A DNA stretch of 64,000 nucleotides from Minisyncoccota bacterium (GCA_041674285.1 JBAYVZ010000001.1:85732-149731), one strand, 5' to 3'; numbered from the stretch's first letter, positions 22,163 to 40,344 are shown. The notes: generated from the sequence alone by a model not told the origin. Made by a program: numbers and translations.

Positions 22163-23608
22163 ATGGCTTATAAACCAAATTCTGGAAGAACTCGGAGTTC
22201 TTCCTCTGATAGCGTAGGTGGCGATAGTCGCCCATCGCTCCGATCAAGTGGTAGTCGTGGTGGATCTTCTCATGGAGGCCCGTCTCGATCATCACATAGT
22301 AATAGTAGTAGTCCTGCACGTGCAGCCCGTCCTTCACATGGAGGTCCAGCTCGCTCATCAGCACCTTATTCAGGTGGTGGTGGATCCCGTGGTGGCCGTG
22401 GCAATTTTTCTGGAAACAGAAAGGGCCGTGGTGGCTCAGGTGGTGGAGGCGGATCACGTGGTGGTTCATCTCGTGCCGGTGGCCGTGGCAAGGGTAATTT
22501 CGAGAGGATAGATTTCTCACGATTTATCAACAAAGCTACAATCACAGAAAAAGAGGAGATTTACTTACCGACTCATACATTCTCTGATTTTAAAGTAGAT
22601 GAATCTTTAAAGAGAGCTATCGCAAATAAAAATTACATATATCCGAGTCCTATTCAGGACAAGGCTATTCCTCATGCTCTAGAGGGTCGCGATATCGTAG
22701 GTATTGCGAATACTGGTACAGGTAAAACTGCAGCATTCCTAATCCCACTTATCAACAAGATATTGAATAACAAAAATGAAAAGGTGATAATCCTTGCTCC
22801 TACACGAGAGCTCGCAATTCAGATTGAAAAAGAATTGTTTGAATTCGTAAAGGGTATGAGTATCTTCTCTGTAGTATGCGTAGGAGGCGCACCGATATAT
22901 CCGCAAATCAAGACATTACGAAGACGTTGCGACTTTATCATCGGTACACCCGGACGTATCATGGACCTAGTAGATCGAAAAGAAATAAACCTCTCGACTG
23001 TGAACAATATAGTTCTCGATGAGGCTGATCGTATGCTAGACATGGGATTCGTAGATGATATGACAAAGATATTGCGTGCTATGCCCGAGCAGAAGCAAGC
23101 CTTCCTCTTCTCAGCGACTCTTCCAAAAGAAGTAGAAAAGCTAGTAGAGAGATTCACAAAGGATCCAGTGCGTGTGATGGTAAAGACTCGCGATACATCA
23201 AAGAACGTAGAGCAAGATATCGTCCGCATATCACGTGGTACAGAAAAGATGGATGTCCTAGAAGATCTCCTTTCTACAGCAGAATTCGACAAAGTTATAA
23301 TCTTTGCAGAGATGAAGCACACAGTAGAAAAGATTTCAGTGGAGTTGATAAAGCGCGGTTTCCGTGCAGGATCAATCCACGGCGACAAACGTCACAACGA
23401 GAGACAGAGAACACTGACACAATTTAAAGATGGAACTCTTAGTATTCTCGTAGCGACAGACGTCGCAGCTCGAGGACTAGATATCCCAAATGTATCTCAC
23501 GTGATCAACTATGAAGTACCTCAGACTTATGATACCTATGTTCACCGTATCGGCCGTACAGGCCGTGCCAGTGCAAAGGGTACAGCTCTGACATTCGTAG
23601 CAGGTTAA
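22163..23608 (+). CDS. DEAD-box ATP-dependent RNA helicase with N-terminal Ser/Arg/Gly (RGG)-rich extension
   Basis: Q-motif, GTGKTAAF, DEAD, SAT, HRIGRTGR; ~120-aa N-terminal RS/RGG low-complexity region; start set at ATG 22163 (TATATAT immediately upstream). Confidence 0.9.
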   Translation: MAYKPNSGRTRSSSSDSVGGDSRPSLRSSGSRGGSSHGGPSRSSHSNSSSPARAARPSHGGPARSSAPYSGGGGSRGGRGNFSGNRKGRGGSGGGGGSRGGSSRAGGRGKGNFERIDFSRFINKATITEKEEIYLPTHTFSDFKVDESLKRAIANKNYIYPSPIQDKAIPHALEGRDIVGIANTGTGKTAAFLIPLINKILNNKNEKVIILAPTRELAIQIEKELFEFVKGMSIFSVVCVGGAPIYPQIKTLRRRCDFIIGTPGRIMDLVDRKEINLSTVNNIVLDEADRMLDMGFVDDMTKILRAMPEQKQAFLFSATLPKEVEKLVERFTKDPVRVMVKTRDTSKNVEQDIVRISRGTEKMDVLEDLLSTAEFDKVIIFAEMKHTVEKISVELIKRGFRAGSIHGDKRHNERQRTLTQFKDGTLSILVATDVAARGLDIPNVSHVINYEVPQTYDTYVHRIGRTGRASAKGTALTFVAG

Positions 23609-23651
23609 AATTAAATAACCCTAGCAAGACCCGTTCTTGCTTAAAAACAAA

Positions 23652-23694
23652 AAAACTTACAAGCTTACGCTATCGCGCAAAGTTGTAAGTTTTT
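23652..23694. repeat. palindromic intergenic hairpin repeat, copy 1 (AAACTTACAAGCTTACGCTATCGCGCAAAGTTGTAAGTTT)
   Basis: Near-identical to copies at 27587, 28198, 40300; flanked by A-run/T-run (bidirectional-terminator-like). Confidence 0.85.
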
Positions 23695-23737
23695 TTGTTT
23701 GCACTCATTAATTTTTTATTTTATAATTTATTCATAA

Positions 23738-26700
23738 TGAAAAACATATTGCATTTCGCAATAGTGTTTGTATTCATAACTATTTTTAATATAGGAATAT
23801 TTCCTAGTTTTGCTTTTGCAGATACTGTCGTAGTAGGAGATATAAATGAAGATACTGTGTGGAGTTACGGAGACGGACCTTATATCCTGCAAGGTAATGT
23901 GTATGTGGATAGTGGAGTAAATTTAATTATCGAGAGCGGTACGATTGTAAAATTTGAGTTAGGATCTAGCCTCATTATCCAAGGCAATGTAGATATGCGT
24001 GGGTCTGAGGGTGATGAGATTTATTTTACTTCTATTTTAGATGATAGTATCGGTGGAGATACAAATTTTGATGAGGACGCCACCTCTCCTAGTCTTGGTG
24101 ATTGGAGGTTTATATTATTTGATTCTGGGTCCGTTTCTGGCATTTTAAATAATGTAATTTCACGGTACTCAGAGCAGGGCCTCGTTGTTTTTGATGCTTA
24201 TCTGAGTGTAGATGGTTTTACGTCAGATCAGGATATATATTTTTTAAATTCCAACGGAAGTCATTTATCCAGGATAAATATACCCAGTATGTCATTTTTT
24301 GATCATAGTAGCGCCTCCATCTCCGACAGTACCATCTCTGGTCCAGACAATACACCTATCTTGGTCCTTTATGAGGGGAATACTGTAAATATATTAAATA
24401 CTACGATATCTTGTATTTCTTTTTGCGGGAATGTAGTTAGTGTTTATAATTCATCAGTTTTGAATATAGAATCATCTGGTATATCTAGCGATTCCGGTGG
24501 TGTTTATGTTTTTGATTCTACTTTAAATGTCACAGATTCAGTTATTGATAATAGGAATAATGGGATATCTATATATGATTCATCTTTGTCTATATCAGAT
24601 TCTACTATCAAGAATTCTCAAAATTTTGGTATCGGTGTATATAATTTTTCTTTACAAAATATAGAGATTACAAATAATGAGATAAAAAATAATGGCATAG
24701 GGATAGCTTCATATGGAGAAGCGTTTTCAGTTCATGAAAATAGTATCCATGGGAATATTGTTGGTGTATCCAATGAAGCTATTTATATGGGGGACCTAAT
24801 TATGGACTCAAATTGGTGGGGGAGCAAAACGGGCCCATATCATGACACTCTGAATATCTACGGATTGGGTGATAGTGCCACTGACGGAGTATCCTACTAT
24901 CCTTGGCTACCTTATGACCCACTCAGTAGCGAGATGTCCAACGTGCTATTTATTCCTGGTTTTCAAGGTAGCAGATTGTATAAACAAAAAACATTGCCAA
25001 TCATTGGTAATGTGGAAGATAAACTCTGGGAGCCGAATACCAATAGTGATATCACAGATATGATGATGGATAATTTTGGCATTAGCCTAGATGAAAATAT
25101 CTATACTAGAGATATTGTAGATAAAAAGAGTGCTCTATTTTTTACTAGCGATATCATCTATGAATCTTTTATGAATGATATGGAAGCTCTAGTTAGTTCA
25201 AATACTATGGCGGATTGGGCGGCGACTCCTTATGACTGGAGGTATGACCCTATGTATGTAGTAGAACATGGTAGCGTGGATATAAATGGAAATATTTTTT
25301 ATGAAAATGAATTATTTGGATCCGAAGATTCATATATAGTAAAACAGGTAGAGAGCCTGATTGGTACATCAAAAAGTGGGAGGATCACACTAGTAGCTCA
25401 TTCAAATGGAGGCCTGGTTTTAAAAGCTCTAATGGTAAAGCTGGAGCAAATGAAAGCTGATGGTCTGAATGATTATGTGGATTATATAGATAAAGTTATC
25501 ATGGTCGCTACGCCACAGGTCGGTACACCCAAAGCTGTAGCTTCTATCCTGCATGGCTATGACCAGGAATTGTATTCCGGTGTGATTATGAAGCAATCGG
25601 TAGCTCGCAATTTTGCGATTAGGTTACCTGGGGCTTATGGATTGCTCCCGACTTCAAAATATTTTTATAACGTAGTGGATTCGCCAGTTGTCTTTGATCA
25701 GAGTTTAAATAAGATAAATAATTTTTATAAGATTTTTGGAGAAAAAATATCTAATTATGAAGATTTTGTAGATTTCTTATTAGCAAAAAAGAAAGACCGT
25801 ACGACTCCAGCTGTCTCCATGCTCGAAACACCAGCGATATTATTCCCAGGGATTTTTAATGATTCGGTAGATATTCACGAACAGCTTGATAATTATACTT
25901 TCCCAAGTAAAACAAAAGTCTACCAGCTCGCAGGTTGGGGCTTGCCGACATTGAAGGCTGTGCGATATTTCTCTCGAGCTGACTGCATACCTATCTCTAT
26001 TTTTAGCAAAAAATGCAAGATAGAAAATAATCTAGACGTAGAGCCTGTATTTACTGATGATGGGGACGAGACCGTAGTAACGCCTAGTGCTAATTATATT
26101 TCAGGCAATAATTATTATTTAAATTTATATAAATATAATAAAGATATGGGTTATGAGAATGAAGAAGTTTTTGATCACGCTCGTATACTTGACATTCTTT
26201 ATACAAGATCATGGATTATAAATATTTTAAGAAATAATTCTGTATTACCAGATTATGTGACTAAGACAAAACCTCCAAGTAATCAAAATTTAGTTATGTA
26301 TATACATACAACACCAGGTATGGACAAGAACGTATCGATTACAGACAAGGATGGCAACAATATGGGTATCAGGCTAGGTGTACCGTCAGACCCAGAAACT
26401 ACAGATTTTATACCGTATATCCAAGAGATTCCCGGAGGGTTTTATTCTATGATGGGGAGGAATCATTATGTATATCTGAGCTATTCAGGATCCGATAGTT
26501 ATAGGGTGAATATCACCCCAGCCGAGAATTCGGGTGGGGATACGAGCTCTGGTAGTGTCACTATCCGCCAAGATGTAGTCATTGGTGATACGATAGAGAG
26601 CTCCGTGACTGTGCCTAGCATCCCTGTATCTCCTGATACTATTATTTCCACGGACATAGGTCCAGATGGGTCTATAGACGATGTGGAGGTGGACAATGAA

Positions 26701-27144
26701 GGTGATGGCAATGTGGACTATATAGTGCCATCTATCCCCACAGAGGATCCACAGTCCCCAGTACAAGATGATGACAATATGAACTCCGAGATTATTCCAG
26801 ATCTAGAGATTTCAAAATCTTATGGATCTAATGCTGTTGTCCCCGATGAGAGAGGTGTCGTCGTGATAAGGGAAGGTATTGAAGTTAGATTAAATAAGAC
26901 AGATACTCAGATAGAAGGCGATCCAGTTTTGATACCTAATACTAAAATAGAAATTATAGATTCCGATATAGGTAATAAAGAGGTTGCGTCTGTGTTTGAT
27001 GAATACATCTATTCTGGGTCCAATCTGTCTGCATCTGTCCTGGAGTCTGAGATAGAAATCCCTTGGTTAAAAATTTTAAATACAATTCTGATTGCTATTA
27101 TTATATCTCTTGTATTGTATAAATTTATGTATAAGGTAAAATAA
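23738..27144 (+). CDS. large cell-surface protein: signal peptide, right-handed beta-helix repeats, alpha/beta-hydrolase (lipase/esterase-like GxSxG) domain, C-terminal TM anchor
   Basis: Signal peptide MKNILHFAIVFVFITIFNIGIFPSFAFA; NosD/pectate-lyase-like repeats (NNGISIYDSSLSISDSTIKNSQNFGIGVYNF); LVAHSNGG nucleophile elbow; C-terminal TM ILNTILIAIIISLVLY; start set at ATG 23738. Confidence 0.75.
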
Positions 27145-27148
27145 AAAT

Positions 27149-27589
27149 ATGAATTGGCAAAAAATTACAATTTGGACTTTAATTCTATCTGTTATTATTT
27201 ATCTGCTTTTTTATTACATTGCTAGTCATACAGATAAATTTTGTTATGAAGATCACTGGGACTGTTATTTAAAATTAAGATTTGCGATATCTTTTTCCTT
27301 TATAAATCTTTTCGAGTATATAATTCCAATCTTACTAATTGTTGCGTCTTTGCCAAGTCGCTATCAAAGAAAAATGTATATAAGTTTTATTTTTGTTTCT
27401 GTATTGGTTTTTATTTTTGTGTTTATTTTGTTGCCATATGAGTGTACTGGTTATATGTGCTTTGATAAGGCTAGTGGAGCCAAGTTTGCCCGAAATCTAT
27501 ACCCCCTAGTCCTAATCCCAATACTTGTGATCAATTTCTTCCGCTTCCGCAAACAAGACAAAAAAGCTTCAATTATTTTAAGCAAATAA
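27149..27589 (+). CDS. hypothetical polytopic membrane protein
   Basis: Four predicted hydrophobic helices; no motif. Confidence 0.45.
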   Translation: MNWQKITIWTLILSVIIYLLFYYIASHTDKFCYEDHWDCYLKLRFAISFSFINLFEYIIPILLIVASLPSRYQRKMYISFIFVSVLVFIFVFILLPYECTGYMCFDKASGAKFARNLYPLVLIPILVINFFRFRKQDKKASIILSK

Positions 27590-27628
27590 AACTTACAAAC
27601 TTACGCTATCGCGCAAAGTTGTAAGTTT
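27587..27628. repeat. palindromic intergenic hairpin repeat, copy 2
   Basis: AAAACTTACAAACTTACGCTATCGCGCAAAGTTGTAAGTTT; identical to copy 4; overlaps the stop of the upstream ORF. Confidence 0.85.
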
Positions 27629-27658
27629 CAGTGGTGTATTATTAATAATAATTAACCT

Positions 27659-28156
27659 ATGAGCATTGAAACAGAAATATTGTCCTACTTGGCAAATCAA
27701 AAAAGAGAAAAGCCACTAAAATACAAAGGTCTTAGGGTTGGCCTGTTCGGCTTGCCAGATTTTGAACATTATAAATACCAGACAATGGCTGCAAGATTAT
27801 CCGGTCTCAAAACAAAGGGGTATATAGATGAGAAAAATGGAGCATACTTTATTACAAAAAAGGGTAGAGATTTTCTTTTAAAAAGTAAATCTATCCTTCA
27901 AAAATTTTCGACAAATAAAACGAGTACAGATCCGAAGGATCTTTTGATTGTATATGACATACCCGAGGGTAATAAGAAGCAGAGAGATTGGTTTCGTCGG
28001 CAGTTGGTATCTATGCATTTTGTGATGATACAGAGGAGTGTCTGGGTAGGTCCAGCTCCATTATCCGATGAATTTCTTGCATATTTAAAATCTTTAAAAC
28101 TTAATGATAATTTTAAAACATTCAGATTAGCAAAGGGGTATGATACTCGTAAGTAA
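27659..28156 (+). CDS. winged-helix + Cas2-like (VapD/Cas2-fold) domain protein, orphan
   Basis: C-terminal half LLIVYDIPEGNKKQRDWFRRQLVSMHFVMIQRSVWVG...FKTFRL parallels the Cas2 N-terminal core (LVLV.YDI..D..RRR....L...G.R.Q.SVF). N-terminal ~75 aa is wHTH-like; no CRISPR array nearby. Confidence 0.5.
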   Translation: MSIETEILSYLANQKREKPLKYKGLRVGLFGLPDFEHYKYQTMAARLSGLKTKGYIDEKNGAYFITKKGRDFLLKSKSILQKFSTNKTSTDPKDLLIVYDIPEGNKKQRDWFRRQLVSMHFVMIQRSVWVGPAPLSDEFLAYLKSLKLNDNFKTFRLAKGYDTRK

Positions 28157-28197
28157 GAGTATTATGAATAAATAATTTAAAATTTAGTATAAAATAT

Positions 28198-28242
28198 TAA
28201 ACTTACAACTTTGCGCTATCGCGCAAAGTTGTAAGTTTTTTG
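28198..28242. repeat. palindromic intergenic hairpin repeat, copy 3 (perfect palindrome AACTTACAACTTTGCGC-TAT-CGCGCAAAGTTGTAAGTT)
   Basis: Perfect 17-bp arms; followed by TTTTTTGTTTTTTT. Confidence 0.85.
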
Positions 28243-28320
28243 TTTTTTTGAGTATATTTGTGCTATTTACAAAAAACTTCATATATTGTAGTCTAAAAGA
28301 AAACCCTTAATTTTATATTC

Positions 28321-28800
28321 ATGAAAACTAAAAAAATTAGTATCTTCGCACAAATTACCATTATTGCGGTCATTCTCGTGTTGTTGTTTCTATTCAAAGA
28401 TTATTTGATAGATTCAGTTTTCCTTTCACTTTTTGCTGTATTTTCAGCTTTACTCCTAGTGTCTATCTTTAATTTTATTGATCATATTTATGTAAAAAAA
28501 GGTGAAATGACCAAGGAAAAAATATTGGAAGTTGTCAGTAAGTCTCGAGCTAAGTTTCAAAAATTTGGCTATCTTCCTTTGGAATTTGAAGAAAAATATC
28601 ATAGTACGTCGGTGCCCGATAAGGATCAGGATATAAGGCATTGTATCTGGATGCTCGATCAAATTGAAAAGCAAATCAATGATAATGATTTTGAGATTGG
28701 AAGGATAAACAGATGGCTCGGTTTTGTACAGCATTGTTTATGGGCATATGGATTCTATTCACTCGAAGAGATGAGAGATCAAAATCGACCAACAAAATAA
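28321..28800 (+). CDS. hypothetical membrane protein
   Basis: Two N-terminal TM helices; no motif. Confidence 0.45.
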   Translation: MKTKKISIFAQITIIAVILVLLFLFKDYLIDSVFLSLFAVFSALLLVSIFNFIDHIYVKKGEMTKEKILEVVSKSRAKFQKFGYLPLEFEEKYHSTSVPDKDQDIRHCIWMLDQIEKQINDNDFEIGRINRWLGFVQHCLWAYGFYSLEEMRDQNRPTK

Positions 28801-28869
28801 TTGACTAAACATCAAAAAATCCCTAGAACTTTCGTTCGAGGGATTTTTTAATGCGTCTATGTATATAGA

Positions 28870-29997
28870 TTATGCAGTTGCTTTTTTGTCGTCTAGGAAT
28901 ACTAGAGTCATTCTCTGGTCTTTTGGTTCAAATAGTGTCACTTGGAAATTGTATGTCTTACCCATCTCTAGTGTCTTCTTTAGTTTTTCCTCAGATCCAA
29001 ATCCTGAATTGTGTACTAGTCCTGCTACTCCTTGCTTGATAGATACCAATGCGCCGTGTTTGTTGAACTTGATTACTACTCCAGATACGATATCACCCTT
29101 CTTCAATGTAGTCTCGAATTCCTTCCATGGGTTTTCTTTTAGAGCTTTGATTGAAAGAGAGATTTTACCTTCTTTGATTTCGATTATCTTTGCCTTGATC
29201 TTGTCGCCGATCTTGAATAGGGCACGTGGATCTTCTACTAGACCCCAATCAAGCTCAGAGATGTGTACTAGACCTTCTAGACCCTCTTCTACCTTTAGGA
29301 ATACTCCGAAGTCTACGATACCAGCTACTGTACAATCGATAGCATCACCTACAGTGTATTTGCCTACTACTGCCTGGCGTTCTTCTGGATTGTTGTCTTT
29401 TTCAGAGAAGATTAATTTACCTTCTTTTGGAAGAGCTGAGATCATGATCACATTGATGCGCTTGCCTACGAGCTTCTTCAATTCCTTTAGAATCTTGTCC
29501 TTGTCAGAATCTTCAACCCTCGGATAGTGCTCACTTGAAAGCTGTGATGCTGGTAGGAATCCTGCGATACCCTGCCATTCAAGGATTAGTCCACCCTTGT
29601 TTGCCTCCTTTACTGTGATTTCAAGTAATGTCTTTGACTTGATTGCCTTGTCAGCTTCACTCCAGATTAGAGCTTGTTTTGCTTCCTTTAGAGAAAGTTC
29701 GATGTAACCATCGTCATTGCCTGCTGATACAACCTTTGCCTTTACTACGTCACCAATGTTTACTTTCTTGATGATGTCTTTTGCATTGATGAATTCACGT
29801 CCATATATGATACCTGTACCGTATGGTGCAAGGTCGATATATACAGATGATTTCATGATCATGATCACTGGACCCTCGACTAGAGTATCCACAACTGGTG
29901 GAAGTTCTGTCTTTTCAAGCATCTTGCCGACACTTGAGAGTTCAGCTTTAGCATGTTCTACAACACTGTCTAAAACTTCTTTTTCGTCTTTTTTCAT
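28870..29997 (-). CDS. rpsA: 30S ribosomal protein S1 (short, four S1 domains)
   Basis: Repeated S1/OB motifs (GDVVKAKVV, VGDAIDCTVAGIVDFGVFLKV, FKIGDKIKAKIIEI). Confidence 0.85.
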   Translation of the reverse strand: MKKDEKEVLDSVVEHAKAELSSVGKMLEKTELPPVVDTLVEGPVIMIMKSSVYIDLAPYGTGIIYGREFINAKDIIKKVNIGDVVKAKVVSAGNDDGYIELSLKEAKQALIWSEADKAIKSKTLLEITVKEANKGGLILEWQGIAGFLPASQLSSEHYPRVEDSDKDKILKELKKLVGKRINVIMISALPKEGKLIFSEKDNNPEERQAVVGKYTVGDAIDCTVAGIVDFGVFLKVEEGLEGLVHISELDWGLVEDPRALFKIGDKIKAKIIEIKEGKISLSIKALKENPWKEFETTLKKGDIVSGVVIKFNKHGALVSIKQGVAGLVHNSGFGSEEKLKKTLEMGKTYNFQVTLFEPKDQRMTLVFLDDKKATA

Positions 29998-30224
29998 AAT
30001 TTAAAAATTAAAAAACCGCCCGTTCCTGTGATTTACCAATGGTAAAAGGGAACAGCGGCACAATATATGGGTCTTTTTGATGCGGTTAAGTAAATTGCAC
30101 CATCAAGGGATATCCACATACTGGGCTAGTAATACGTAAAAGATACCATAAAATAAGGGCTTTTGCAAGCTTGACTAGTGTAGGCAATGGGTGGTATAAT
30201 ATACGAAAATTAAACCCGAAAAAA

Positions 30225-30716
30225 ATGAACAAAATTTTATTAGCTAAATCAAGGATGAATCATCCTCTTAGCTCTATTTGCACGTTGTCAAACGGAAAAC
30301 AGGTGGATGGTGAGAAATTTATTGTGGATTTGCCTGTGGAGTATCTCAGTATTGTGGATGAAAAACCTACAATGGTTATACCCATCAAGCAGCATTTTTT
30401 AAAGCTGAATGAGGCTGATCAGAAGAAAAAATTAGAATCATTTATCTTCCATTCAAATGAAAAATCTAAAAATTTTGATTTTGCGATCTTGGTATTGCCT
30501 ATGAGATCTCCGCGATCTCTTCATTTGATGGTTTCTAACTTTTGTTTAAAAAATGAATATGCATTTGCAGATTCATCAAATTCACAAGAGAAAAAAGAAT
30601 TATTAATTAGCTTACCTGTACCTAAAAACCCTGAGATCGATTTAGTGTCAATGTTCCATTTGGGAATTCACAATGAATCTGGTTATCAGAATCGTTTGGC
30701 TATTGCCAAAGTTTAA
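30225..30716 (+). CDS. hypothetical protein
   Basis: ORF from ATG 30225 (track ORF begins 30171); no motif. Confidence 0.4.
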   Translation: MNKILLAKSRMNHPLSSICTLSNGKQVDGEKFIVDLPVEYLSIVDEKPTMVIPIKQHFLKLNEADQKKKLESFIFHSNEKSKNFDFAILVLPMRSPRSLHLMVSNFCLKNEYAFADSSNSQEKKELLISLPVPKNPEIDLVSMFHLGIHNESGYQNRLAIAKV

Positions 30717-30794
30717 TCAAACTAAAGAAGTTCGACCTGTCAGATTTAATCTGGTGGGTCTTCTTTTTTTATATATATTTGATATAATACTCCT

Positions 30795-31421
30795 ATGATT
30801 ATCACATACCTCGGAAAGCAATTTTTTAAAATTCAGCAAGGCGATCTAGTCGTCGCATTTAACCCTATTAGTAAAGAATCAAAATGGGATGGTAAGATAT
30901 CTCGTTTTGGTTCAGATATAGCACTATCTACTACAAATCACCCAGATTACAATGGCTTTGACACTGTATCTCACGGAGACACTGTTCCTTTTTCTGTATC
31001 TGGTGCTGGTGACTATGAAATAAGGGGTATTTTTATAAAGGGTGTGGGTACCGAGGCTAGTATCGGTGGTAAAAAATATGTGAATACTATCTATTCTATG
31101 TCTATCGAAGGTATAACTCTTGGAATACTGGGTCCTGTGGCTAGTGGAGCTATGACATCTCCAGTAAAGGCAGAATTTGAATCTCCTGATATTCTTTTTG
31201 TTCCAATCGGAGGCGGAGATACGCTGGAGGTAGCCGAGGCATACAAAATGGCTCTCTCTATGGAGTCCAAGATTATAATTCCAATGGGCTATGACGAAAA
31301 ATCACTAAAGGCGTTCTTAAAAGAAGGAGGTCAGGAAAATACAAAGTCAATAGAAAAGCTAACCATCAAAGCAAAAGAGCTCGCTGGACGAGAGGGCGAG
31401 ATTGTCGTTCTGGATTATTAA
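30795..31421 (+). CDS. hypothetical protein, possibly degenerate metallo-beta-lactamase-fold (UPF0173-like)
   Basis: MIITYLGKQFFKIQQGDLVVAFNP resembles N-termini of MBL-fold hydrolases, but the HxHxDH motif is not intact (TTNHPDYNG). Confidence 0.35.
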   Translation: MIITYLGKQFFKIQQGDLVVAFNPISKESKWDGKISRFGSDIALSTTNHPDYNGFDTVSHGDTVPFSVSGAGDYEIRGIFIKGVGTEASIGGKKYVNTIYSMSIEGITLGILGPVASGAMTSPVKAEFESPDILFVPIGGGDTLEVAEAYKMALSMESKIIIPMGYDEKSLKAFLKEGGQENTKSIEKLTIKAKELAGREGEIVVLDY

Positions 31422-31435
31422 TATACAATAAGGAT

Positions 31436-31561
31436 ATGAATCCCGTTAGAGATGTGTTTGTTTTATTTTTAAAGTGGGATGAATATTAAATTAAGTCGTA
31501 TTTTTTTACTAAACATTAATAAGATACGGTAATGTAAACATTACCTATCTCTAACGGGATG
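31436..31561 (+). promoter_or_regulatory. structured leader element copy 2 (uORF MNPVRDVFVLFLKWDEY + stem CCCGTTAGAGAT/ATCTCTAACGGG ending at the start codon of the downstream membrane protein)
   Basis: uORF ATG 31436; 5' arm 31442-31453; 3' arm 31547-31558; main ATG 31559. Confidence 0.6.
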
Positions 31562-31891
31562 AAAGATTATATCTATAAATTGCGCTCAAAGCCAGAAGAA
31601 ATAAGGAAACAGTATATGTTTTTCTTTATTGCTATCTTTATGACTGTCGTAGGTGGAGTGTGGGTTTATAGTCTGACCAATACATTTTTTAAATCTTCTG
31701 CGAGTCCCGAGGTTGGTCTAAGTGAAGATGTTAAGCCATTTGCACTGTTCGCAAATACAATAAAGGATACTTATACAAATGTAAAAGCAAGCGCAGTTGA
31801 CCCATTCACAAAAGATAAAGAAGAGATAAAAGACGTGATTCCGGTTGAGAATCAGAAGATGATACCACTTACAGTAATAGATAACCAATAA
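31559..31891 (+). CDS. small N-terminally membrane-anchored protein
   Basis: [22 protein letters not shown]; precedes gyrA by 4 nt. Confidence 0.5.
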
Positions 31892-31895
31892 TACA

Positions 31896-34352
31896 ATGGC
31901 AAAAAAAGAAGAAAACAATGAAATAGTAAAAGAGCATGTAAACGTAGTCTCTGTAAATATTAGTCGTGAGATGAAAGACTCATTTATCGACTATGCCATG
32001 TCTGTGATCACAGATCGCGCTCTACCTGATGTGCGTGATGGATTAAAGCCAGTTCACCGTCGTATCCTATACGCTATGAATGAGATGGGATTGACCCATT
32101 CTTCTCGTTTTCGTAAGTCTGCTGCAGTAGTCGGAGACGTGCTCGGAAAGTACCACCCACACGGAGATGTGGCTGTTTATGATTCTATGGTGGGTATGGC
32201 TCAGGATTTCTCTTATCGTTATCCTCTGATATTCGGGCAGGGTAACTTTGGTTCTATCGACGGGGACAATGCAGCTGCTATGCGTTATACAGAGGCAAAA
32301 ATGGCAAAGATCTCATCAGTCCTTCTCCTTGATCTAGAAAAAGAAACAGTAGATTTTCGACCAAACTACGACCAGACTCGCAAGGAGCCTATCGTGCTAC
32401 CTACTGCTGTCCCATCACTATTGCTAAACGGTACTCTAGGTATCGCTGTGGGTATGGCTACAAATATCCCACCACACAATCTAGGTGAGGTAGTAGACGC
32501 TACAATCGAGCTAATTGATAATAAGGACGCAACTACGGAGGATCTGATGAAGCATATCAAGGGTCCAGACTTTCCAATCGGTGGTATCGTATACGGTCAG
32601 GCAGATATGCTACATGCATATTCTACTGGACGTGGTGGAGTAGTGACTCGTGGCGAGGCAGAGATAGTAGAGCAAAAGAGTGGCACATTTCAGATCATCA
32701 TCACATCTATCCCGTACCGTGTGAATAAATCAGCTCTTATTGAGGCTATAGCGGCCCTAGTGCAAGAGAAAAAGCTAGAAGGTATCAAAGGCCTACGTGA
32801 TGAATCAGCAAAAGATATCCGTATCGCTATTGATCTAAAATCAGGTGTTCACCCACAAAAAGTACTGAACTATATCTACAAGCATACACAGCTCGAGCAG
32901 TCTTTCAATTTTAACATCGTGGCCCTAGTAGATGGTGTACCTCAGACATTGTCACTCAAGAGTCTGCTCTCTGAATTCATAACTCACAGGCAGGTTGTGG
33001 TAAAGCGTCGCACAGAATACGACCTACGTAAGGCAAAAGAACGCGAGCATATATTGCTCGGCTTGAAAAAAGCTCTCGACCATATCGACAAAGTAATCTC
33101 TGTGATCCGTGCTTCAAAGGATACAGCTACAGCAAAGGTAAATTTGATGAAGGAATTCAAATTCTCTGATCTGCAGGCTACAGCTATTCTTGAGATGCGT
33201 CTGCAAAAGCTAGCAGGACTCGAGAGAAAGAATGTAGAATTGGAACTTGCAGAAAAGCAGGCACTTATCAAAGAGCTCGAGGCACTGCTCTCATCTCCAA
33301 AGAAAATGCTAAAAGTAATCGCTGATGAATTGATTGCTATCAAGGAAAAGTATGCAGACGAGCGCCGTACTCGTATCATCAAGGGTGGAGTAAAGGCTAT
33401 CAACGAAGAAGATCTTATCCCAGAAAAAGAATCTGTACTAGTATTCACAAAAGGTGGATATGTAAAGCGTACTGATCCAGGTGAATACCGTGCTCAAAAG
33501 CGTGGAGGTGTGGGGGTAGTCGATATCGAGACAAAGGATGAAGACTTTGTGACAATGCTCGTATCAGCAAATACACACAGTGACCTACTATTCTTTACAA
33601 ACCGTGGAAAGGCATACCAGATCAAGATGTATGACATACCAGAGGGCAAGCGTGCTACAAAGGGTAAGTCTGTCATGAACTTTATCTCACTCGATGATGG
33701 AGAGAAGGTGACTTCAATTTTACCGATAGACAAAGAGACAAAGAAGACAGTAGAGAGTCTGATGCTCGTAACAGCCCAAGGTGTAGCCAAGAAAGTGTCT
33801 GCAGAGGGATTCAAAGATGTGCGCCGTTCAGGGCTCATCGCTATCACTCTTGATAAAGGTGACGAGCTCGTATCTGTACTACCAATCACAAAGGGTGATA
33901 GTGTGATGCTCGCGACAGCCCAAGGTCAATCTATCCGATTCGAAGAAGATGATGTCCGCGAGATGGGACGTGCAGCAGCAGGTGTACGCGGTATCAAGCT
34001 AGGCAAGAATGACAGCGTCATCGGTGTGGACCGTGTAGCAAAGGGGGATAAAGAGAGCTCTCTTTTGATTCTCAGTGAGCACGGCCTCGGAAAGAAGACT
34101 GGTATCAAGGAATACAAAGTCCAAAAGCGTGGAGGATCTGGTATCAAGACTGCAAAAGTGACTACAAAGACTGGAAAGCTAATTGTGGCAAAGATAGTAG
34201 GTGATGAGAATGAAATCATCGCTGTCTCACAAAAAGGCCAAGTGATCCGCGTAGATTTGAAATCTATCCCTTCATCTGGACGCCAGACTCAAGGTGTGAC
34301 AATCATGAAGCTCCGCGCAGGCGATTCAATAGCATCTATTACTTGTTTGTAA
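31896..34352 (+). CDS. gyrA: DNA gyrase subunit A
   Basis: Catalytic-Tyr region [17 protein letters not shown]-terminal beta-pinwheel repeats. Confidence 0.95.
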
Positions 34353-34369
34353 AATTTAAATATAAAAAA

Positions 34370-34396
34370 GTCCGGAATTTACTTTCGGACTTTTTT
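34370..34396 (+). terminator. rho-independent terminator after gyrA
   Basis: GTCCGGAA...TTTCGGAC + TTTTTT. Confidence 0.65.
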
Positions 34397-34416
34397 ATAT
34401 GTGATATAATTAAAAC

Positions 34417-34950
34417 ATGTTTGCAAATCCACAAAGTAATGTAGCTCAATTTAATCTACGCGAGGGTATGCGTGTCGCTGATTTTGGTGCAGGGAGTGGT
34501 GGGTATGTACGTGCTATCTCTGATCGTGTCGGTCATACTGGCAAGGTCTATGCCATCGATGTACAGAACTCTCTATTCCTAAAACTAACAGAAGACGTAA
34601 AAAAATATCCACTCCAAAATGTAGAGTGTATTCTCGGTGATGTAGAGAAAAAGGGTGGGTCAAAACTCGCAGATAAATCCATGGATGCAATCATAGCTTC
34701 CAATGTATTATTCCAGATAGAGGATAAATTAGGCCTGATAGATGAGATTAAAAGAGTTTTAAAGCCAAAAGGGCGAGTACTGGTCATAGATTGGTCAGAT
34801 TCTTTTGGTGGTATGGGTCCAGCACCTATGTACGTAGTGCCCAAGATAAAAGCAGAACATCTATTTATCGATAGAGGTTTTAGAGTTATCGAAAATATAG
34901 GAGCGGGGAGTCATCATTATGGTATAATATTTATATATGAGTCCCGTTAG
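34417..34950 (+). CDS. class I SAM-dependent methyltransferase
   Basis: Motif I VADFGAGSGGY, motif post-I/II AIDV..., LKPKGRVLVIDW. Confidence 0.8.
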   Translation: MFANPQSNVAQFNLREGMRVADFGAGSGGYVRAISDRVGHTGKVYAIDVQNSLFLKLTEDVKKYPLQNVECILGDVEKKGGSKLADKSMDAIIASNVLFQIEDKLGLIDEIKRVLKPKGRVLVIDWSDSFGGMGPAPMYVVPKIKAEHLFIDRGFRVIENIGAGSHHYGIIFIYESR

Positions 34951-35066
34951 AAACCGCGATCGCAATTTAAATAAAAATATTATTATAAAAATTATGCAAT
35001 ATATAAAAATTAACAATCTAATTAATCAGAATCACGACTTGATCGCGATCTGTTTCTAACGGGATG
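34937..35066 (+). promoter_or_regulatory. structured leader element copy 3 (40-codon uORF MSPVRNRDRN... + 21-bp interrupted stem CCCGTTAGAAAC-CGCGATCGC / GCGATCGCG-AGAT-GTTTCTAACGGG)
   Basis: TATAAT 34923-34928 is 8 nt upstream of uORF ATG 34937; uORF stop TAA 35057-35059 lies inside the 3' arm; main ATG 35064. Confidence 0.6.
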
Positions 35067-36368
35067 AGTAATTTTCAAACAATTTTTACTGCTATTTTTT
35101 TAGCCTTCTTTGTTTTTGGTGTTTTGGTTTTTGCTGGGCTAATACCTCTAGGAAAATCTTCAAATTCAAATTCTCCTGTGGGTAATGTGGTGATATGGGG
35201 GACATTTCCTTCTTTGTCTATGTCAAAGATTATTGAAGAAATAAATTCTTCAAATCAAGACCTCATTATTAAGTACGCACAAAAGCCAAAGGGCACATAC
35301 CAACAGGATATATTAGAAGCTATGGCTTCTAGTTCTGGGCCAGACTTGTTTTTTGTAACTCCAGATATGGTGATAAAAAACAAAAAATTTATTTATCCTA
35401 TGCCTTATTCAAATTATCCAGAAAAGTCATTTAACTCAACCTTTATTGAAGGTTCTAACGTTTTTTTGGCAAAAGAAGGAGTGCTGGCCTTTCCTGTAGT
35501 TGCTGATCCTCTGGTTCTTTATTACAACAAAGAATTGCTTACAAATGCAGGCATTGCAAAACCTCCGGTTTATTGGGATGAATTATTTGAGATGAATTCG
35601 TTACTGACAAGAAAGAATAATGACGGTGTGGTATCTCAATCCATGATTGCATTGGGTGGTTTTGATAATATTAATAATGCAAAAGATATAATGACTCTAC
35701 TCTTGATTGGTAGTGGCGATTCTATTATCCAAAACGATCGCTCTGATGGGACTATGTCTGTGGTAGTGAATGACAAGACTCCGTTCACATTGTCGCCAGT
35801 AGAGACAGCCATAGGATTCTTTAATGAATTTTCAAATGTGAATAACCAGGCTTATTCATGGAATAGATCTCTCCCGAATTCAAAAGATATGTTTACAAAC
35901 GGTAAATTGGCTTTTTATATTGGTCGCGCGAGTGAACTTTTTGAGATTGAGTCCATAAATCCAAATCTTAGTTTTGATGTAACAAATGTTCTCCAGACCC
36001 GCAGTACAAATCTAAAGAGGACAAATGGTCCAATCTACGCATTGGCTACTAGTAGTCGTTCTACAAATGTGGCTGGTTCATTGGGTGTAGCTGGCCTGAT
36101 GTCTAGTCCTGATATTGCAAGGGAGATATCTTCGGCATTGTCTATCCCACCAGCACAGAAGGATTTATTGAATGAAAATCCGACAGATCCATATATATAT
36201 ACTTTCTATAAATCAGCAATCTATCTGTACCCATGGTTGGATCCAGATACAAAGATCACAGATACAATATTTAGGGATCTATATCAGAATCTAATATCAA
36301 ATAAACTAAGTTCTGCCGATGCTGTGAATAAACTTCAGAGTCAGTTGGACTTATTAATTAAAAAATAA
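35064..36368 (+). CDS. membrane-anchored extracellular solute-binding protein (ABC-type SBP family-1-like)
   Basis: N-terminal TM anchor; SBP-like features (VVIWGTFPS..., GPDLFFVTPD, GKLAFYIG); no permease genes adjacent. Confidence 0.55.
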   Translation: MSNFQTIFTAIFLAFFVFGVLVFAGLIPLGKSSNSNSPVGNVVIWGTFPSLSMSKIIEEINSSNQDLIIKYAQKPKGTYQQDILEAMASSSGPDLFFVTPDMVIKNKKFIYPMPYSNYPEKSFNSTFIEGSNVFLAKEGVLAFPVVADPLVLYYNKELLTNAGIAKPPVYWDELFEMNSLLTRKNNDGVVSQSMIALGGFDNINNAKDIMTLLLIGSGDSIIQNDRSDGTMSVVVNDKTPFTLSPVETAIGFFNEFSNVNNQAYSWNRSLPNSKDMFTNGKLAFYIGRASELFEIESINPNLSFDVTNVLQTRSTNLKRTNGPIYALATSSRSTNVAGSLGVAGLMSSPDIAREISSALSIPPAQKDLLNENPTDPYIYTFYKSAIYLYPWLDPDTKITDTIFRDLYQNLISNKLSSADAVNKLQSQLDLLIKK

Positions 36369-36371
36369 TAT

Positions 36372-37346
36372 ATGAAAAAAATACTTGCAATATTTATATT
36401 GGTAGCAACGCTAGCACCTACGATGTCGTTTGCTGGCGGTTTTGATGAGCCACCTTTTGCAGATATATACAACCCTGATTCAAAATGCTGGAGAGGTGTG
36501 ATGCATCTAAAGGGGCCTAGCGAGCAATTGCTACGTCAAAATATGCCTGTTAAGATGCGAGAGTCCTATGCGACTGCAGTGGGTGTGGATATTTCTGCTG
36601 TACCTTCATTTGCTCCTTTTATAATTGAAACATCTAATACTTCTCTCTATGATTCTGAAAAGAAAGAATATCACTTCTATGCAGCTGCAGTGTATCCACT
36701 ACCAGGTGTAGATGATGACTGTATAAAAGCGGTCCCACCATCAAATCCAAATACTACTGTGACTACTGAGGGTAAGGACATAATAGGAAAATCTACAGTT
36801 GGCCTGGCTGCTGCTAGAGCTGCTGTGGGTGGTGCTGGGTCTATCGGTCTCGGTGGTATCGCAGGTGTTGTGGCAGGGTCAAATCCTAATCCTGATACTC
36901 CAGGGGATATAAAGGGTACTCCTTTATACTCAGGTTCAACATCTGGTAATAGTGAGATTAATTATAATCCTGGTCCGAGTGGTCTAGCTGTGGACTGTAA
37001 CCGAGGAGAACCTGTAGTTCAGTATAGTACAGGCAAAAATGGTCAGAGAATAACCGAAGTGGTATTTCAGAATAATTGTGGTTTTGATGATTTGATGACT
37101 CTAATCAACAAGATTATTAATTTTCTTTTGTTTGTCATTGCTACACCCCTAGTCGCTATCGGTGTGTGTTATGCGGGATTCCTGTATCTTACATCTGGTG
37201 GTAGCTCTGAGAAGACTGGTCAGGCAAAAAGTATACTCATGAATCTAGTTATCGGTTATATAGTCGCATTGCTAGCTTGGGTAGTAGTGAAAACGATAAT
37301 GGTATCGTTAGGGTTCAATGCTACTGGTATATTCCTAGAGATTTAA
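36372..37346 (+). CDS. secreted VirB2/TrbC-pilin-like protein with long Gly-rich N-terminal domain (paralog 1 of 5)
   Basis: Signal peptide; C-terminal two-TM core PLVAIGVCYAGFLYLTSGGSSEKTGQAKSILMNLVIGYIVALLAWVVVK. Confidence 0.5.
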   Translation: MKKILAIFILVATLAPTMSFAGGFDEPPFADIYNPDSKCWRGVMHLKGPSEQLLRQNMPVKMRESYATAVGVDISAVPSFAPFIIETSNTSLYDSEKKEYHFYAAAVYPLPGVDDDCIKAVPPSNPNTTVTTEGKDIIGKSTVGLAAARAAVGGAGSIGLGGIAGVVAGSNPNPDTPGDIKGTPLYSGSTSGNSEINYNPGPSGLAVDCNRGEPVVQYSTGKNGQRITEVVFQNNCGFDDLMTLINKIINFLLFVIATPLVAIGVCYAGFLYLTSGGSSEKTGQAKSILMNLVIGYIVALLAWVVVKTIMVSLGFNATGIFLEI

Positions 37347-37383
37347 TGTTGTGTTTAATTATAATTAATTTTAAAATAATAAG

Positions 37384-37788
37384 ATGAATAAAATTACGTT
37401 TTTCATGTTACGAAATAAAAAGATTTTGACTGTCGCGTATCTCCTTGTTTTAATGATTTTGCCTTTTGCTTTCTCTCATGCAGTTGATCCTGCTGGTGTG
37501 AATCTGGATGTGAGGATAAAGAACCCTCTGGATAGTAGTATAAATACACTCCCAAAGTTCATAGAAGAGGCTTTGAAAATTGTACTGCAGATCGGTGTGC
37601 CGGTGGTGACATTGGCTATCATATACAGTGGTTTTCTTTTTGTAATGGCAAGAGGGAATAGTGAAAAGCTAGGCGAGGCCAAGAATACACTGATGTACAC
37701 ACTCATAGGAGCGGCATTGCTACTAGGATCATGGGTCATAGCGCAGGCTATACAAGGTACAATATCAGACATTAAAAGCACAACATAA
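37384..37788 (+). CDS. VirB2/TrbC-pilin-like small two-TM protein (paralog 2)
   Basis: Signal peptide; core VPVVTLAIIYSGFLFVMARGNSEKLGEAKNTLMYTLIGAALLLGSWVIAQAI. Confidence 0.5.
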   Translation: MNKITFFMLRNKKILTVAYLLVLMILPFAFSHAVDPAGVNLDVRIKNPLDSSINTLPKFIEEALKIVLQIGVPVVTLAIIYSGFLFVMARGNSEKLGEAKNTLMYTLIGAALLLGSWVIAQAIQGTISDIKSTT

Positions 37789-37803
37789 TTAAAATAAAAA
37801 TAT

Positions 37804-38103
37804 ATGCAATGTTCAAATTCAATTAAAAGTATTACAGATTTTATAAATCTAGGGAGCTGTATATTGATAAAGTCTGTGGTTCCTCTACTATTCTCTATCG
37901 CTACTGTTGGTTTTATATGGGGTATCATCCAGTATTTTATAAATCCTGATAATGAAGAGAAGCGTAGTGCAGGTAAATCTTATATGATATGGGGATTGAT
38001 TGGGTTATTCGTGATGGTATCTATCTGGGGGCTAGTAGGGGTATTCTCTTCTACTTTAGGGATCAATAATAAGCTGATCGTTCCTCAGGTATATACAAAA
38101 TAA
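37804..38103 (+). CDS. VirB2/TrbC-pilin-like small two-TM protein (paralog 3)
   Basis: Core VPLLFSIATVGFIWGIIQYFINPDNEEKRSAGKSYMIWGLIGLFVMVSIWGLVGVF. Confidence 0.5.
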   Translation: MQCSNSIKSITDFINLGSCILIKSVVPLLFSIATVGFIWGIIQYFINPDNEEKRSAGKSYMIWGLIGLFVMVSIWGLVGVFSSTLGINNKLIVPQVYTK

Positions 38104-38189
38104 AAACTTGCGTATTGTATATCATTTTGTGATATAATATAAGTATCATTATTAGGGTTTAGTCGTTAATTATTATTTAAAAATAAAAC

Positions 38190-38555
38190 ATGAAAAAAAT
38201 TATTTCATCAAGTTTGGTTTTGTCACTGCTCCCTGTTTTTGTTTCTGCTGCGTCTGTTGATGCTTATTCAATAATCGCAACAATTGGAAGACTTTTGAAT
38301 TTGGTTATCCCTGTTCTTATTGCGTTTGCTGTAGTTTACTTTATCTGGGGAGTTATCCAGTACACAATCTCAGGTAATGACGAGGCAAAAGAAAAGGCTC
38401 GTACAAGTATCATCCAAGGTCTTATCGGTCTATTCGTGATCGTAGCTTTCTGGGGTATCATCGGTATCATCACAAATACATTTGGAGTCGGATCAACTAG
38501 CTTCTCAGCTAACAACCAGCTTCCTTGTATCCCAACATCTGGAAATCCTTGCTAA
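38190..38555 (+). CDS. VirB2/TrbC-pilin-like small two-TM protein (paralog 4)
   Basis: Signal peptide; core IPVLIAFAVVYFIWGVIQYTISGNDEAKEKARTSIIQGLIGLFVIVAFWGIIGII. Confidence 0.5.
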   Translation: MKKIISSSLVLSLLPVFVSAASVDAYSIIATIGRLLNLVIPVLIAFAVVYFIWGVIQYTISGNDEAKEKARTSIIQGLIGLFVIVAFWGIIGIITNTFGVGSTSFSANNQLPCIPTSGNPC

Positions 38556-38567
38556 TAAAATAAATAT

Positions 38568-39413
38568 ATGTTTTTTGAACTTATACCAGTAGCAGAGGCG
38601 AGTGTGGCGACATTGATGCAGAGCATTAATAGGGTTATTATTAACCCTATTATAATACTGATGTTCTCTGCTGCCATAGTTTACTTTCTGTATGGCGTAG
38701 TTCAGTATCTCATTTCTCCGGATGACGAGGAGTTGAGGACTACCAGTAAATCCCATATGCTCTATGGGATTATTGGTATTTTTATCATGATGTCGGTTTT
38801 TGGTATTATGCGTGTGATTCTAAACTCACTGGGAGAGAATCATATAAAGATTACAGACACAGGAGAAGTAAATATCGCACCGAGGGACGGCTCTGGTTTT
38901 AACAATATTGGTGACTCGATAATAGATAAATCAATATTTACTCCGGTAAATAATAAATTTGAAAAACCAGTAGATACCTCTTGGGTAGATACAAACATAA
39001 CAACAAAGAAAGACCTAAATAAGACCATATATATAGATCCAAACTCTGTTTCAACAAAATCTACTTCAGGTACCTCAAGCGGTGTCGGAACAGGTGGTTC
39101 TACTGGTGGTCTGCCTGAGATCAAGAACGAGAGTAATCTGCCATCTTTAGATGCAGGTGTCGCAAAGATTGTTCAAGATATGAAAGATGCCTACAAGACA
39201 GATAGCAAGAATTACAAGGTCGTAGCTTCTGGGTTATCTAACTCTGAACAATCTGCAAAAGAACAAACTATCATGAATGCTCGTATTATGGTTGCCAAAG
39301 AAAAAAATGTGACCAATCTGGACAGTGTTTATAATGGAGGTATCCTGTATGAGAAAAATTGGAAAGTCGGTGAGACCTACCACTACTGGGTAGCTATGAG
39401 CTCTCCTAAATAA
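38568..39413 (+). CDS. VirB2/TrbC-pilin-like two-TM protein with ~190-aa C-terminal extracellular extension (paralog 5)
   Basis: Core NPIIILMFSAAIVYFLYGVVQYLISPDDEELRTTSKSHMLYGIIGIFIMMSVFGIM; Gly/Ser/Thr linker SGTSSGVGTGGSTGG. Confidence 0.5.
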   Translation: MFFELIPVAEASVATLMQSINRVIINPIIILMFSAAIVYFLYGVVQYLISPDDEELRTTSKSHMLYGIIGIFIMMSVFGIMRVILNSLGENHIKITDTGEVNIAPRDGSGFNNIGDSIIDKSIFTPVNNKFEKPVDTSWVDTNITTKKDLNKTIYIDPNSVSTKSTSGTSSGVGTGGSTGGLPEIKNESNLPSLDAGVAKIVQDMKDAYKTDSKNYKVVASGLSNSEQSAKEQTIMNARIMVAKEKNVTNLDSVYNGGILYEKNWKVGETYHYWVAMSSPK

Positions 39414-39423
39414 CCTAACTTAA

Positions 39424-39450
39424 AAACCACCGAAAGGTGGTTTTTATTTT
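39424..39450 (+). terminator. rho-independent terminator
   Basis: AAAAACCACC-GAAA-GGTGGTTTTT. Confidence 0.8.
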
Positions 39451-39489
39451 GTTTGGTCATTATACCCTTAAAACATGAGCTAGATGTGC

Positions 39490-39518
39490 TTGACAAAAAA
39501 GTTGAAAAAGAGTATAAT
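39490..39518 (+). promoter_or_regulatory. consensus sigma70 promoter TTGACA-17-TATAAT
   Basis: TTGACA 39490-39495, TATAAT 39513-39518, exactly 17-nt spacer; upstream of the 39628 gene. Confidence 0.6.
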
Positions 39519-39627
39519 ATGTAAATAAGGTTAGTTCTTTGAAATGGCAGGGATTTTGGTTTGTTTACTAGAGCGGATATATAATTATCACTTCTGGCAA
39601 ACAAACCAATATAAAACATACAACAAC

Positions 39628-40152
39628 ATGAAAAAGCCAATGCTTTTAGTAGTTGCAATCATCATCATGATGTTAGCGACAACGGTTAACTCTACCGCAC
39701 AACAAAAAATGAGTAAAAATAGTAGTATCGCAGGTGGGAGTGTTGATTCTTTGGTTCTCGTTCAAAAAATCATTGATGATGCCATTACTGCTCGAGAAGA
39801 GGTTTCTGGGATGGTAATGATCGTGGAGCAATTTATTAGCTTAGAACAACATGAGTTTGACAGTCTATATCTTGAATTCCGGAAATTGAATCCGGATTCC
39901 GCGGTGAGTATTTATGAGGGTGCCTCGGTTTCGAAAGAACAAGAATTGGAATTCGAGAATTACATGGCGATGTCGGAAGAGAGATCACATCTTATTATAA
40001 GTCAAATGGAAAAGGTCTCATCAGAAAAAGAGATTTTACTTGACCGGTTCATGAATCTACAGACTAAATATCTTGAACTAACAGATTTGCTCCTCAAAAA
40101 CTACGACATTTTGGTCCGCCTTCTTAGATGTAAAGAAGAAAACAAAAATTAA
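39628..40152 (+). CDS. secreted coiled-coil protein, hypothetical
   Basis: Signal peptide MKKPMLLVVAIIIMMLATTVNSTAQ (start chosen at internal ATG 39628). Confidence 0.45.
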   Translation: MKKPMLLVVAIIIMMLATTVNSTAQQKMSKNSSIAGGSVDSLVLVQKIIDDAITAREEVSGMVMIVEQFISLEQHEFDSLYLEFRKLNPDSAVSIYEGASVSKEQELEFENYMAMSEERSHLIISQMEKVSSEKEILLDRFMNLQTKYLELTDLLLKNYDILVRLLRCKEENKN

Positions 40153-40299
40153 CGCCTTCCTCCTGCCGAAAACAAAAATCCTTTTCTTTCGAAAGGGATT
40201 TTTAATTTTATAGACGTTTATTTGCTTATTAATAATATTTGTTGTTCCAGTTTTTTGTATAATTTTTGGGCCATAGATTTACATATGCTATTTAACTAT

Positions 40300-40344
40300 A
40301 AAACTTACAAACTTACGCTATCGCGCAAAGTTGTAAGTTTTTTT
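40300..40344. repeat. palindromic intergenic hairpin repeat, copy 4
   Basis: AAAACTTACAAACTTACGCTATCGCGCAAAGTTGTAAGTTTTTTTG; between convergent genes. Confidence 0.85.

Follow-up and report, generated by a model that had tools for sequence, protein, structure and literature searches.

Palindromic sites flanking a PaaX-like wHTH-Cas2-like gene in Paceibacterota are candidate autoregulatory operators that resemble terminators in one lineage

In a 64,000-nucleotide stretch of a Minisyncoccota bacterium (GCA_041674285.1, JBAYVZ010000001.1:85732-149731; hereafter the window, with positions counted from its first nucleotide), four near-identical palindromes of about 40 nucleotides (nt) are located between genes. 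Two of them flank a gene (27659-28156, + strand) for a 165-residue protein that combines a winged helix-turn-helix (wHTH) domain with a Cas2-like domain (PaaX_M) and is here called mini-PaaX. This layout raises the question of whether the palindromes are transcription terminators, substrates of a nuclease or recombinase, or binding sites of the protein encoded between two of them. From the comparison with sequences of relatives, we consider it reasonably likely that they are autoregulatory operators of the adjacent mini-PaaX, which in the lineage of the window have taken on a terminator-like form and have been copied to two terminator slots.

The four palindromes had been reported in an initial annotation of the window, and this is confirmed both by a repeat search, which groups them as a single 55-nt family, and by a 24-mer from their common part, which matches all four on the + strand without mismatches (0 matches expected, 100 shuffles). 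All copies share one orientation, and the spacings of 3936, 610 and 12102 nt between them contain whole genes, in agreement with the earlier statement that the family is not a CRISPR array. Copy 1 (23652-23694) has the structure A7 - AACTTACAAGCTTACGC TATC GCGCAAAGTTGTAAGTT - T7. Copy 2 (27587-27628), the upstream, promoter-proximal site of the regulator gene, and copy 4 (40300-40344) are identical, as annotated, across 41 nt, and copy 1 differs from both by a single A->G change, while copy 4 has A- and T-run flanks like those of copy 1. Copy 3 (28198-28242), the downstream site of the regulator gene, deviates from the others in the inner left arm. It had been described as 17-bp arms around TAT, and is instead a perfect 18-bp stem (AAACTTACAACTTTGCGC / GCGCAAAGTTGTAAGTTT) with a 4-nt loop, TATC, followed by a T-run. 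No fifth copy was found in the window or in a further 19 kb (L018, L020) of its contig, k141_666987 of the ENA metagenome ERZ27247358, which corresponds to four copies per about 83 kb of a 200-kb contig, all inside 16.7 kb. As the initial annotation had also stated, none of the remaining terminator-like hairpins in the window shares its sequence with another, and an Rfam scan at gathering thresholds identified two tRNAs and nothing else.

The regulator gene was compared with its homologs at six loci from other Paceibacterota (L006, L008, L009, L011, L014 and L016; about 55-60% protein identity). In all seven genomes, the window included, a two-fold symmetric site, about 34-38 nt long in the six relatives, is present on either side of the gene. 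The sequence of the site is specific to each genome, but all sites are built on a common frame, TTAC(C)-N~10-C-TAT-N-G-N~10-(G)GTAA, and the spacing of the boxes, TTAC(C)-N22-24-(G)GTAA, is found in 15 distinct sites from the seven genomes. The pattern TTAC-N9-11-(TATN/NATA)-N9-11-GTAA matches both flanks of the gene in the window, L006, L008, L009, L014 and L016, while in L011 it matches the upstream flank and the downstream site is one base off (GGCAA). Over 276 kb, this pattern has 18 matches, compared with 4.2 +/- 1.9 in shuffled sequences; 16 of these are sites of the family and the other two come from one orthologous chance match inside an ATP-synthase gene. There is no other match within +/-10 kb of the loci in the relatives, and copies beyond the bracketing pair occur in the window lineage only. 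The outer boxes alone (TTAC-N22-27-GTAA) are not enriched in the window (12 matches, 11.6 expected), and no wider regulon can thus be called from them.

The unit of site, gene and site is located between rpsG and fusA in four genomes (L006, L009, L011 and L016); L008, L014 and the window have it in different surroundings. Its immediate neighbors are unrelated ORFans, and both sites accompany the gene in every context. The distance from the stop codon to the start of the downstream site is 0-5 nt in six genomes, compared with 43 nt in the window, and that from the site to the promoter-like elements of the next gene varies widely. Control of a conserved neighboring gene by the downstream site was ruled out, since the next gene is unrelated in every genome; together with the variable promoter distance, this indicates that the downstream site belongs to the regulator gene. 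As a separate observation, the gap between rpsG (ribosomal protein S7) and fusA (elongation factor G) in L006, L009, L011 and L016, at around position 10000 of each locus, holds lineage-specific ORFans on one or both sides of the regulator gene and is a variable spot in an otherwise conserved str-operon region.

Conservation across the sites falls into three blocks, TTAC, C-TAT-N-G and GTAA, which are invariant or nearly so and are separated by variable spacers. The two-fold symmetry is pronounced, with 82% of the cells paired, a level reached in 0 of 500 shuffles. A fixed sub-stem is not maintained: L016 is without the inner stem, and the middles of the L011 and L014 sites are unpaired. The predicted stability of the hairpins ranges from -4.9 kcal/mol, which is no better than that of shuffled sequence, to -24.4 kcal/mol in copy 3; the upstream site of L014 (-4.9 kcal/mol) and the downstream site of L016 (-6.7 kcal/mol) barely fold. 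For copies 1, 2 and 4, the better fold is that of the non-transcribed strand (-16.8 versus about -11.4 kcal/mol). The sites in the relatives mostly have no T-runs, and canonical terminators with an A-run, a GC-stem and a T-run adjoin the upstream sites of L011 and L016 and the downstream site of L009. The combination of conserved blocks, stems that drift and fold unevenly, and adjoining terminators points to the recognition of a sequence in duplex DNA rather than to a conserved terminator or RNA hairpin.

The position of the upstream site relative to promoter-like elements is also similar between the genomes. In six of them, the right box of the upstream site is followed 2-3 nt on by a TGATATAAT-like element, and the ATG is located 6-9 nt later. 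Copy 2 is the counterpart in the window of the upstream sites of all six relatives, and here a putative extended -10-like element of the regulator gene, TGTATTATT (27635-27643, + strand), placed by a by-eye alignment, is located 10 nt past the right box. In the six relatives, the element looks like the extended -10 of a near-leaderless promoter, which would place the site over the -35 to -17 region. The upstream site of L008 lies in a divergent promoter region. No gene ahead of it needs a terminator, and since it is placed between divergent genes, it cannot act as one there. A role of the palindrome in protein binding, one of several suggested in the initial annotation, is thus supported by the sites around the orthologous gene in seven of seven genomes and by their overlap with the predicted promoter.

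The protein encoded between the sites is PaaX-like but is not a PaaX orthologue. It matches PF20803 (3.8e-15), PF09827 (2.9e-6) and HTH_45 (2e-4) in Pfam, where no match to the PaaX_C effector domain was obtained, and it scores 17 bits against the PaaX equivalog model TIGR02277, for which the cut-off is 264.55. The AlphaFold model (predicted local distance difference test, pLDDT, 79) contains a wHTH domain, with the recognition helix at residues 40-52 and the wing at residues 56-65, followed by a ferredoxin-like domain. The top match of this model in a Foldseek search of the PDB is PaaX from E. coli (8A39), with a probability of 0.99 and an E-value of only 4e-3, and it is followed by Cas2 and VapD proteins and by the DNA-binding domains of MarR, PadR and CggR. 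The family is tightly conserved, with a mean column identity of 68% over 79 sequences, and the group of proteins of about 165 residues comprises 864 clusters (50% identity) at E<=1e-10; no match to the family was obtained among viral contigs. The residues YDI...QRSVW of the Cas2 signature do not vary, and a conserved HUH motif was not found in the family alignment. Relative to the family consensus, the window protein has the changes L43M, N45A and C47L in the predicted recognition helix, and the site in the window differs from those of the relatives in having TTACA for TTACC and arms that are 1 bp shorter. This covariation is anecdotal and suggestive only.

PaaX is the repressor of the phenylacetate catabolon in E. 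coli and Pseudomonas, and consists of a GntR-type wHTH domain, a Cas2-like middle domain and a C-terminal effector domain. The E. coli protein has TGATTC-N27-GAATCA as its operator and keeps its own promoter repressed through steric hindrance (reviewed in PMC9493321). The mini-PaaX resembles it in the order of the N-terminal wHTH and Cas2-like (PF20803) domains, in the inverted boxes with a long spacer (TTACC-N24-GGTAA), and in the placement of one candidate site over the predicted promoter of the regulator itself. It differs in its length (165 residues, compared with about 300 for PaaX), in lacking PaaX_C, in having no paa genes nearby, and in keeping the Cas2-type signature residues. Furthermore, its sites have an additional invariant center, C-TAT-N-G, the 3' end of the gene is always adjoined by a second site, and the gene is found in hosts from the candidate phyla radiation (CPR), mostly between rpsG and fusA.

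According to the mechanism that we propose, a protein dimer joined via the Cas2-like domain would contact the outer inverted boxes TTAC(C)...(G)GTAA with its pair of winged helices. These boxes are about 29 bp apart from center to center, with the invariant C-TAT-N-G center between them. Binding at the upstream site would exclude RNA polymerase and result in negative autoregulation, as for E. coli PaaX at Px. The second site, at the 3' end of the gene, would most likely cooperate with the first, either by looping of the gene, which is about 550 bp, or as a roadblock at the gene end. In the window lineage, the whole site may have evolved into a near-perfect hairpin with A- and T-runs, after which a unit of about 55 nt would have been copied to two more intergenic terminator slots, giving rise to copies 1 and 4. 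These two copies probably also terminate transcription, and may have placed the LCAT-like operon under the control of the regulator.

Copy 1 is located between the stop codon of a DEAD-box helicase gene (23608) and an LCAT-like gene, and it ends 8 nt before a promoter-like site, TTTGCA-18-TATAAT; a further hairpin (23623-23641) is present just upstream of it. The segment between copies 1 and 2 (23737-27589, + strand) encodes the LCAT-like protein of 1135 residues (Pfam LCAT, 1.8e-14) and a membrane protein of 146 residues, and copy 2 starts at the stop codon of the latter open reading frame (ORF) (27587-27589, inside the A-run of the copy). In L022 (JAPLXP01), a related species with a 90% identical helicase, and in L023, the order of the helicase, LCAT and membrane-protein genes is kept and the palindromes are absent. 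The gap between the helicase and LCAT genes in L022 has the same flanks and promoter-like sequence as in the window, with a unique GC-rich terminator hairpin in the slot of copy 1, which identifies copy 1 as a lineage-specific replacement in a terminator slot. After the membrane-protein gene, at the position of copy 2, both L022 and L023 carry an ordinary hairpin. Since the block is syntenic in the absence of the sites, it is not a cassette bounded by them, contrary to the suggestion in the initial annotation that the palindromes delimit mobile cassettes.

Copies 1 and 4 have a unit of about 55 nt in common, including the A- and T-runs, with 95% identity, and therefore arose by copying. An orthologue of copy 4, bearing the G variant of copy 1, is present in the metagenome-assembled genome JAGOUR01 (Candidatus Paceibacterota; L001, 3184-3221), the DNA of which is 91-95% identical to the window. 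This orthologue is the sole match to the 20-mer ATCGCGCAAAGTTGTAAGTT among the GTDB species representatives, while the JGI metagenomes contain one chance match in a GC-rich coding region (L002); the source genome of the window is in neither of these collections. A 17-mer gave one chance match in viral contigs (L005). Copies 1, 2 and 4 have their left arm, AACTTACGCTATCGCGC, in common with the downstream site of L014, which suggests that the imperfect palindrome is probably ancestral and that the perfect form seen in copy 3 is probably derived, as could result from the correction of a quasi-palindrome. Near-identical terminator hairpins (ATCAAAAAATCCCACC....GGTGGGATTTTTTGAT) are also found after two adjacent genes in L006 (2969-3004 and 3948-3983), showing that local duplication of terminator hairpins is possible in such genomes.

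Copy 4 is located between two convergent genes, a 202-residue ORF (+ strand) and a NUDIX gene (- strand), about 100 nt downstream of a terminator-like hairpin (40174-40203). The 202-residue ORF (39544-40152) has no DNA match in JAGOUR01 (window positions 39452-40231 versus L001 2424-3114), which carries a different sequence with its own terminator at this position, and the slot is thus variable between strains.

Several observations weigh against the operator function. The comparative sample consists of seven genomes only, and the promoters were predicted solely from consensus matches in AT-rich DNA. Copy 4, between its convergent genes, has no promoter to control, and copy 1 ends 8 nt short of the -35 element of the LCAT-like promoter instead of covering it. 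Even where the sites drift between genomes, copies 1, 2 and 4 have the same bases, which indicates copying and not selection for binding. Changes on both sides of the sites keep the symmetry above the level of the shuffles, and a mechanism that depends on a hairpin would predict the same. Finally, D100, the catalytic-type aspartate of Cas2, is invariant in 79 sequences, although a purely structural dimerization domain could do without it.

Among the alternatives, the palindromes may be intrinsic bidirectional terminators that share their sequence by coincidence and would then form a small dispersed family of the repetitive extragenic palindromic (REP) type without a specific protein partner. 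We regard this as unlikely, although the arrangement in the window agrees with it in part: all four copies are located at gene 3' ends, copy 1 occupies exactly the slot of the unique terminator in L022, between the same two flanking genes, and copy 2 is located where L022 and L023 carry an ordinary hairpin. The A-run, stable stem and T-run of a rho-independent terminator are present in copies 1, 3 and 4. The initial annotation had placed A- and T-runs at every copy, but copy 2 has no T-run and is followed by TTTCAG. Only copy 3 is on the list of a terminator scan, and copies 1 and 4 have the T-run and imperfect stems. However, terminators would not be expected to keep their boxes across genera and genomes with about 60% protein identity, where TTAC, CTATNG and GTAA are invariant and the stem drifts, nor to lack T-runs and in some cases a stable fold (the upstream site of L014 and the downstream site of L016) next to separate terminators, nor to be placed in a divergent promoter region as in L008. 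The preferred fold of copies 1, 2 and 4 on the non-transcribed strand also speaks against this explanation, as does the restriction of the four copies in 83 kb to within 16.7 kb of the regulator gene. The terminator role proposed in the initial annotation is plausible for copies 1, 3 and 4, as a secondary feature of this lineage, but is not a conserved function of the sites in the relatives, and the few clustered copies, with no transposase found among the genes annotated or scanned in 83 kb, give no support to its description of a dispersed REP-like repeat.

The palindromes could also be hairpin substrates, as single-stranded DNA, cruciform or RNA, of a Cas2-like nuclease, in analogy with REP elements and their REP-associated tyrosine transposases (RAYT) or with IS200, such that a domesticated single-copy gene would carry its own hairpins on either side and now and then seed new copies, or through processing of its own mRNA at the 3' hairpin. 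There is a formal likeness, in that lineage-specific imperfect palindromes of 30-40 nt, each with a short conserved head of 4-5 nt, stand on both sides of a single-copy gene that is inherited vertically, and in that extra intergenic copies, two of them near-identical in the window lineage, are located at gene 3' ends. The invariance of the Cas2 hallmark, the excess of symmetry-preserving double changes over shuffles, and the compactness of the unit, which is about 620 bp and has moved as a whole between genomic contexts, are likewise consistent with a nuclease. Nevertheless, we find this explanation rather improbable, since no fixed sub-stem keeps its pairing (L016, L011, L014), the upstream site precedes the inferred transcription start and hence lies outside the mRNA of the gene, the other genomes contain the bracketing pair only, within +/-10 kb, and the nearest structural relative, PaaX, acts as a repressor instead of a nuclease. 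The protein has no signature of a Y1/HUH or tyrosine transposase, the genes annotated or scanned in 83 kb yielded no RAYT, the head is TTAC/GTAA instead of GTAG, and there are four copies in 83 kb compared with tens to hundreds for REP elements. A more specific version, in which an active Cas2-fold nuclease recognizes and nicks its own flanking hairpins as a REP/RAYT-like domesticated element across Paceibacterota and seeds copies into terminator slots, seems to us very doubtful; if true, it would represent a domesticated element built on the Cas2 fold instead of the HUH fold. Least probable are site-specific recombination sites, attC- or dif-like, around mobile cassettes consisting of the LCAT block (23738-27589) and the segment 27659-28156. 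Such sites would agree with the direct repeats that bracket two adjacent gene blocks, with the unrelated ORFans that differ by genome next to the regulator, and with the superficial similarity to attC of conserved outer inverse boxes around a variable middle. Against this, the block of helicase, LCAT and membrane-protein genes is syntenic in L022 and L023 with no sites at either end, the supposed cassette between copies 2 and 3 is always one conserved gene, and the orientation of the site pair varies, being direct in the window, L011, L014 and L016 and inverted in L008 and L009. Moreover, the extra ORFans between rpsG and the regulator in L006 and L009 have no further site ahead of them, and the genes annotated or scanned in 83 kb yielded neither an integrase nor another recombinase or a transposase. 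A DNA-uptake sequence was also considered and was rejected on the basis of spacing and density.

To our knowledge, transcription factors are very few in the CPR bacteria, or Patescibacteria, and hardly any of their regulatory sites have been defined by experiment, and we found no account of this protein family or motif in the literature. If the palindromes are operators of the mini-PaaX, the two-domain protein and the 34-bp site TTACC-N10-CTATCG-N10-GGTAA would constitute a testable pair, in a layout of site, gene and site that is common to seven Paceibacterota genomes and often placed in the rpsG-fusA region. The window would then also provide an example of an operator that evolved into a terminator-like hairpin and was subsequently copied to new loci. 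The analysis further draws attention to a large family of short wHTH-Cas2-like proteins, with the Cas2-type residues intact in the aligned subfamily. No major concept would be changed by these results unless the nuclease explanation is true.

The gene content of the window is typical of CPR bacteria, with, for example, pilins of the type IV secretion system (T4SS) type and many ORFans. A second motif family has three copies, at 18336-18380 (+), 31518-31562 (+) and 49126-49181 (-), with the form tac-G[7-bp stem]-TAAA-[stem]-ta...acgg/tg-ATG, each of which ends at a start codon. The genes concerned encode a peptidyl-prolyl isomerase (PPIase), a 110-residue ORF ahead of gyrA, and a PriA-like protein. 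The stems, GATAATC, GGTAATG and GGAAATC, differ by compensatory changes, no other perfect 7-bp/TAAA hairpin occurs in the window, and the motif is a candidate regulatory hairpin of the 5' leader. Directly 5' of tRNA-Val(GAC) (41864-41937), there are about 2.2 tandem copies of a 40-nt unit (41785-41872), each of which opens with the first ~12 nt of the tRNA (GCGCGGTTAGCT), and which may be a duplication or an integration scar. Lastly, GGT/CGT-rich imperfect repeats at 17568-17682 and 22374-22485 encode low-complexity stretches rich in glycine and arginine, of which one belongs to a zinc-finger protein and one to the N-terminal region of the DEAD-box helicase ORF.

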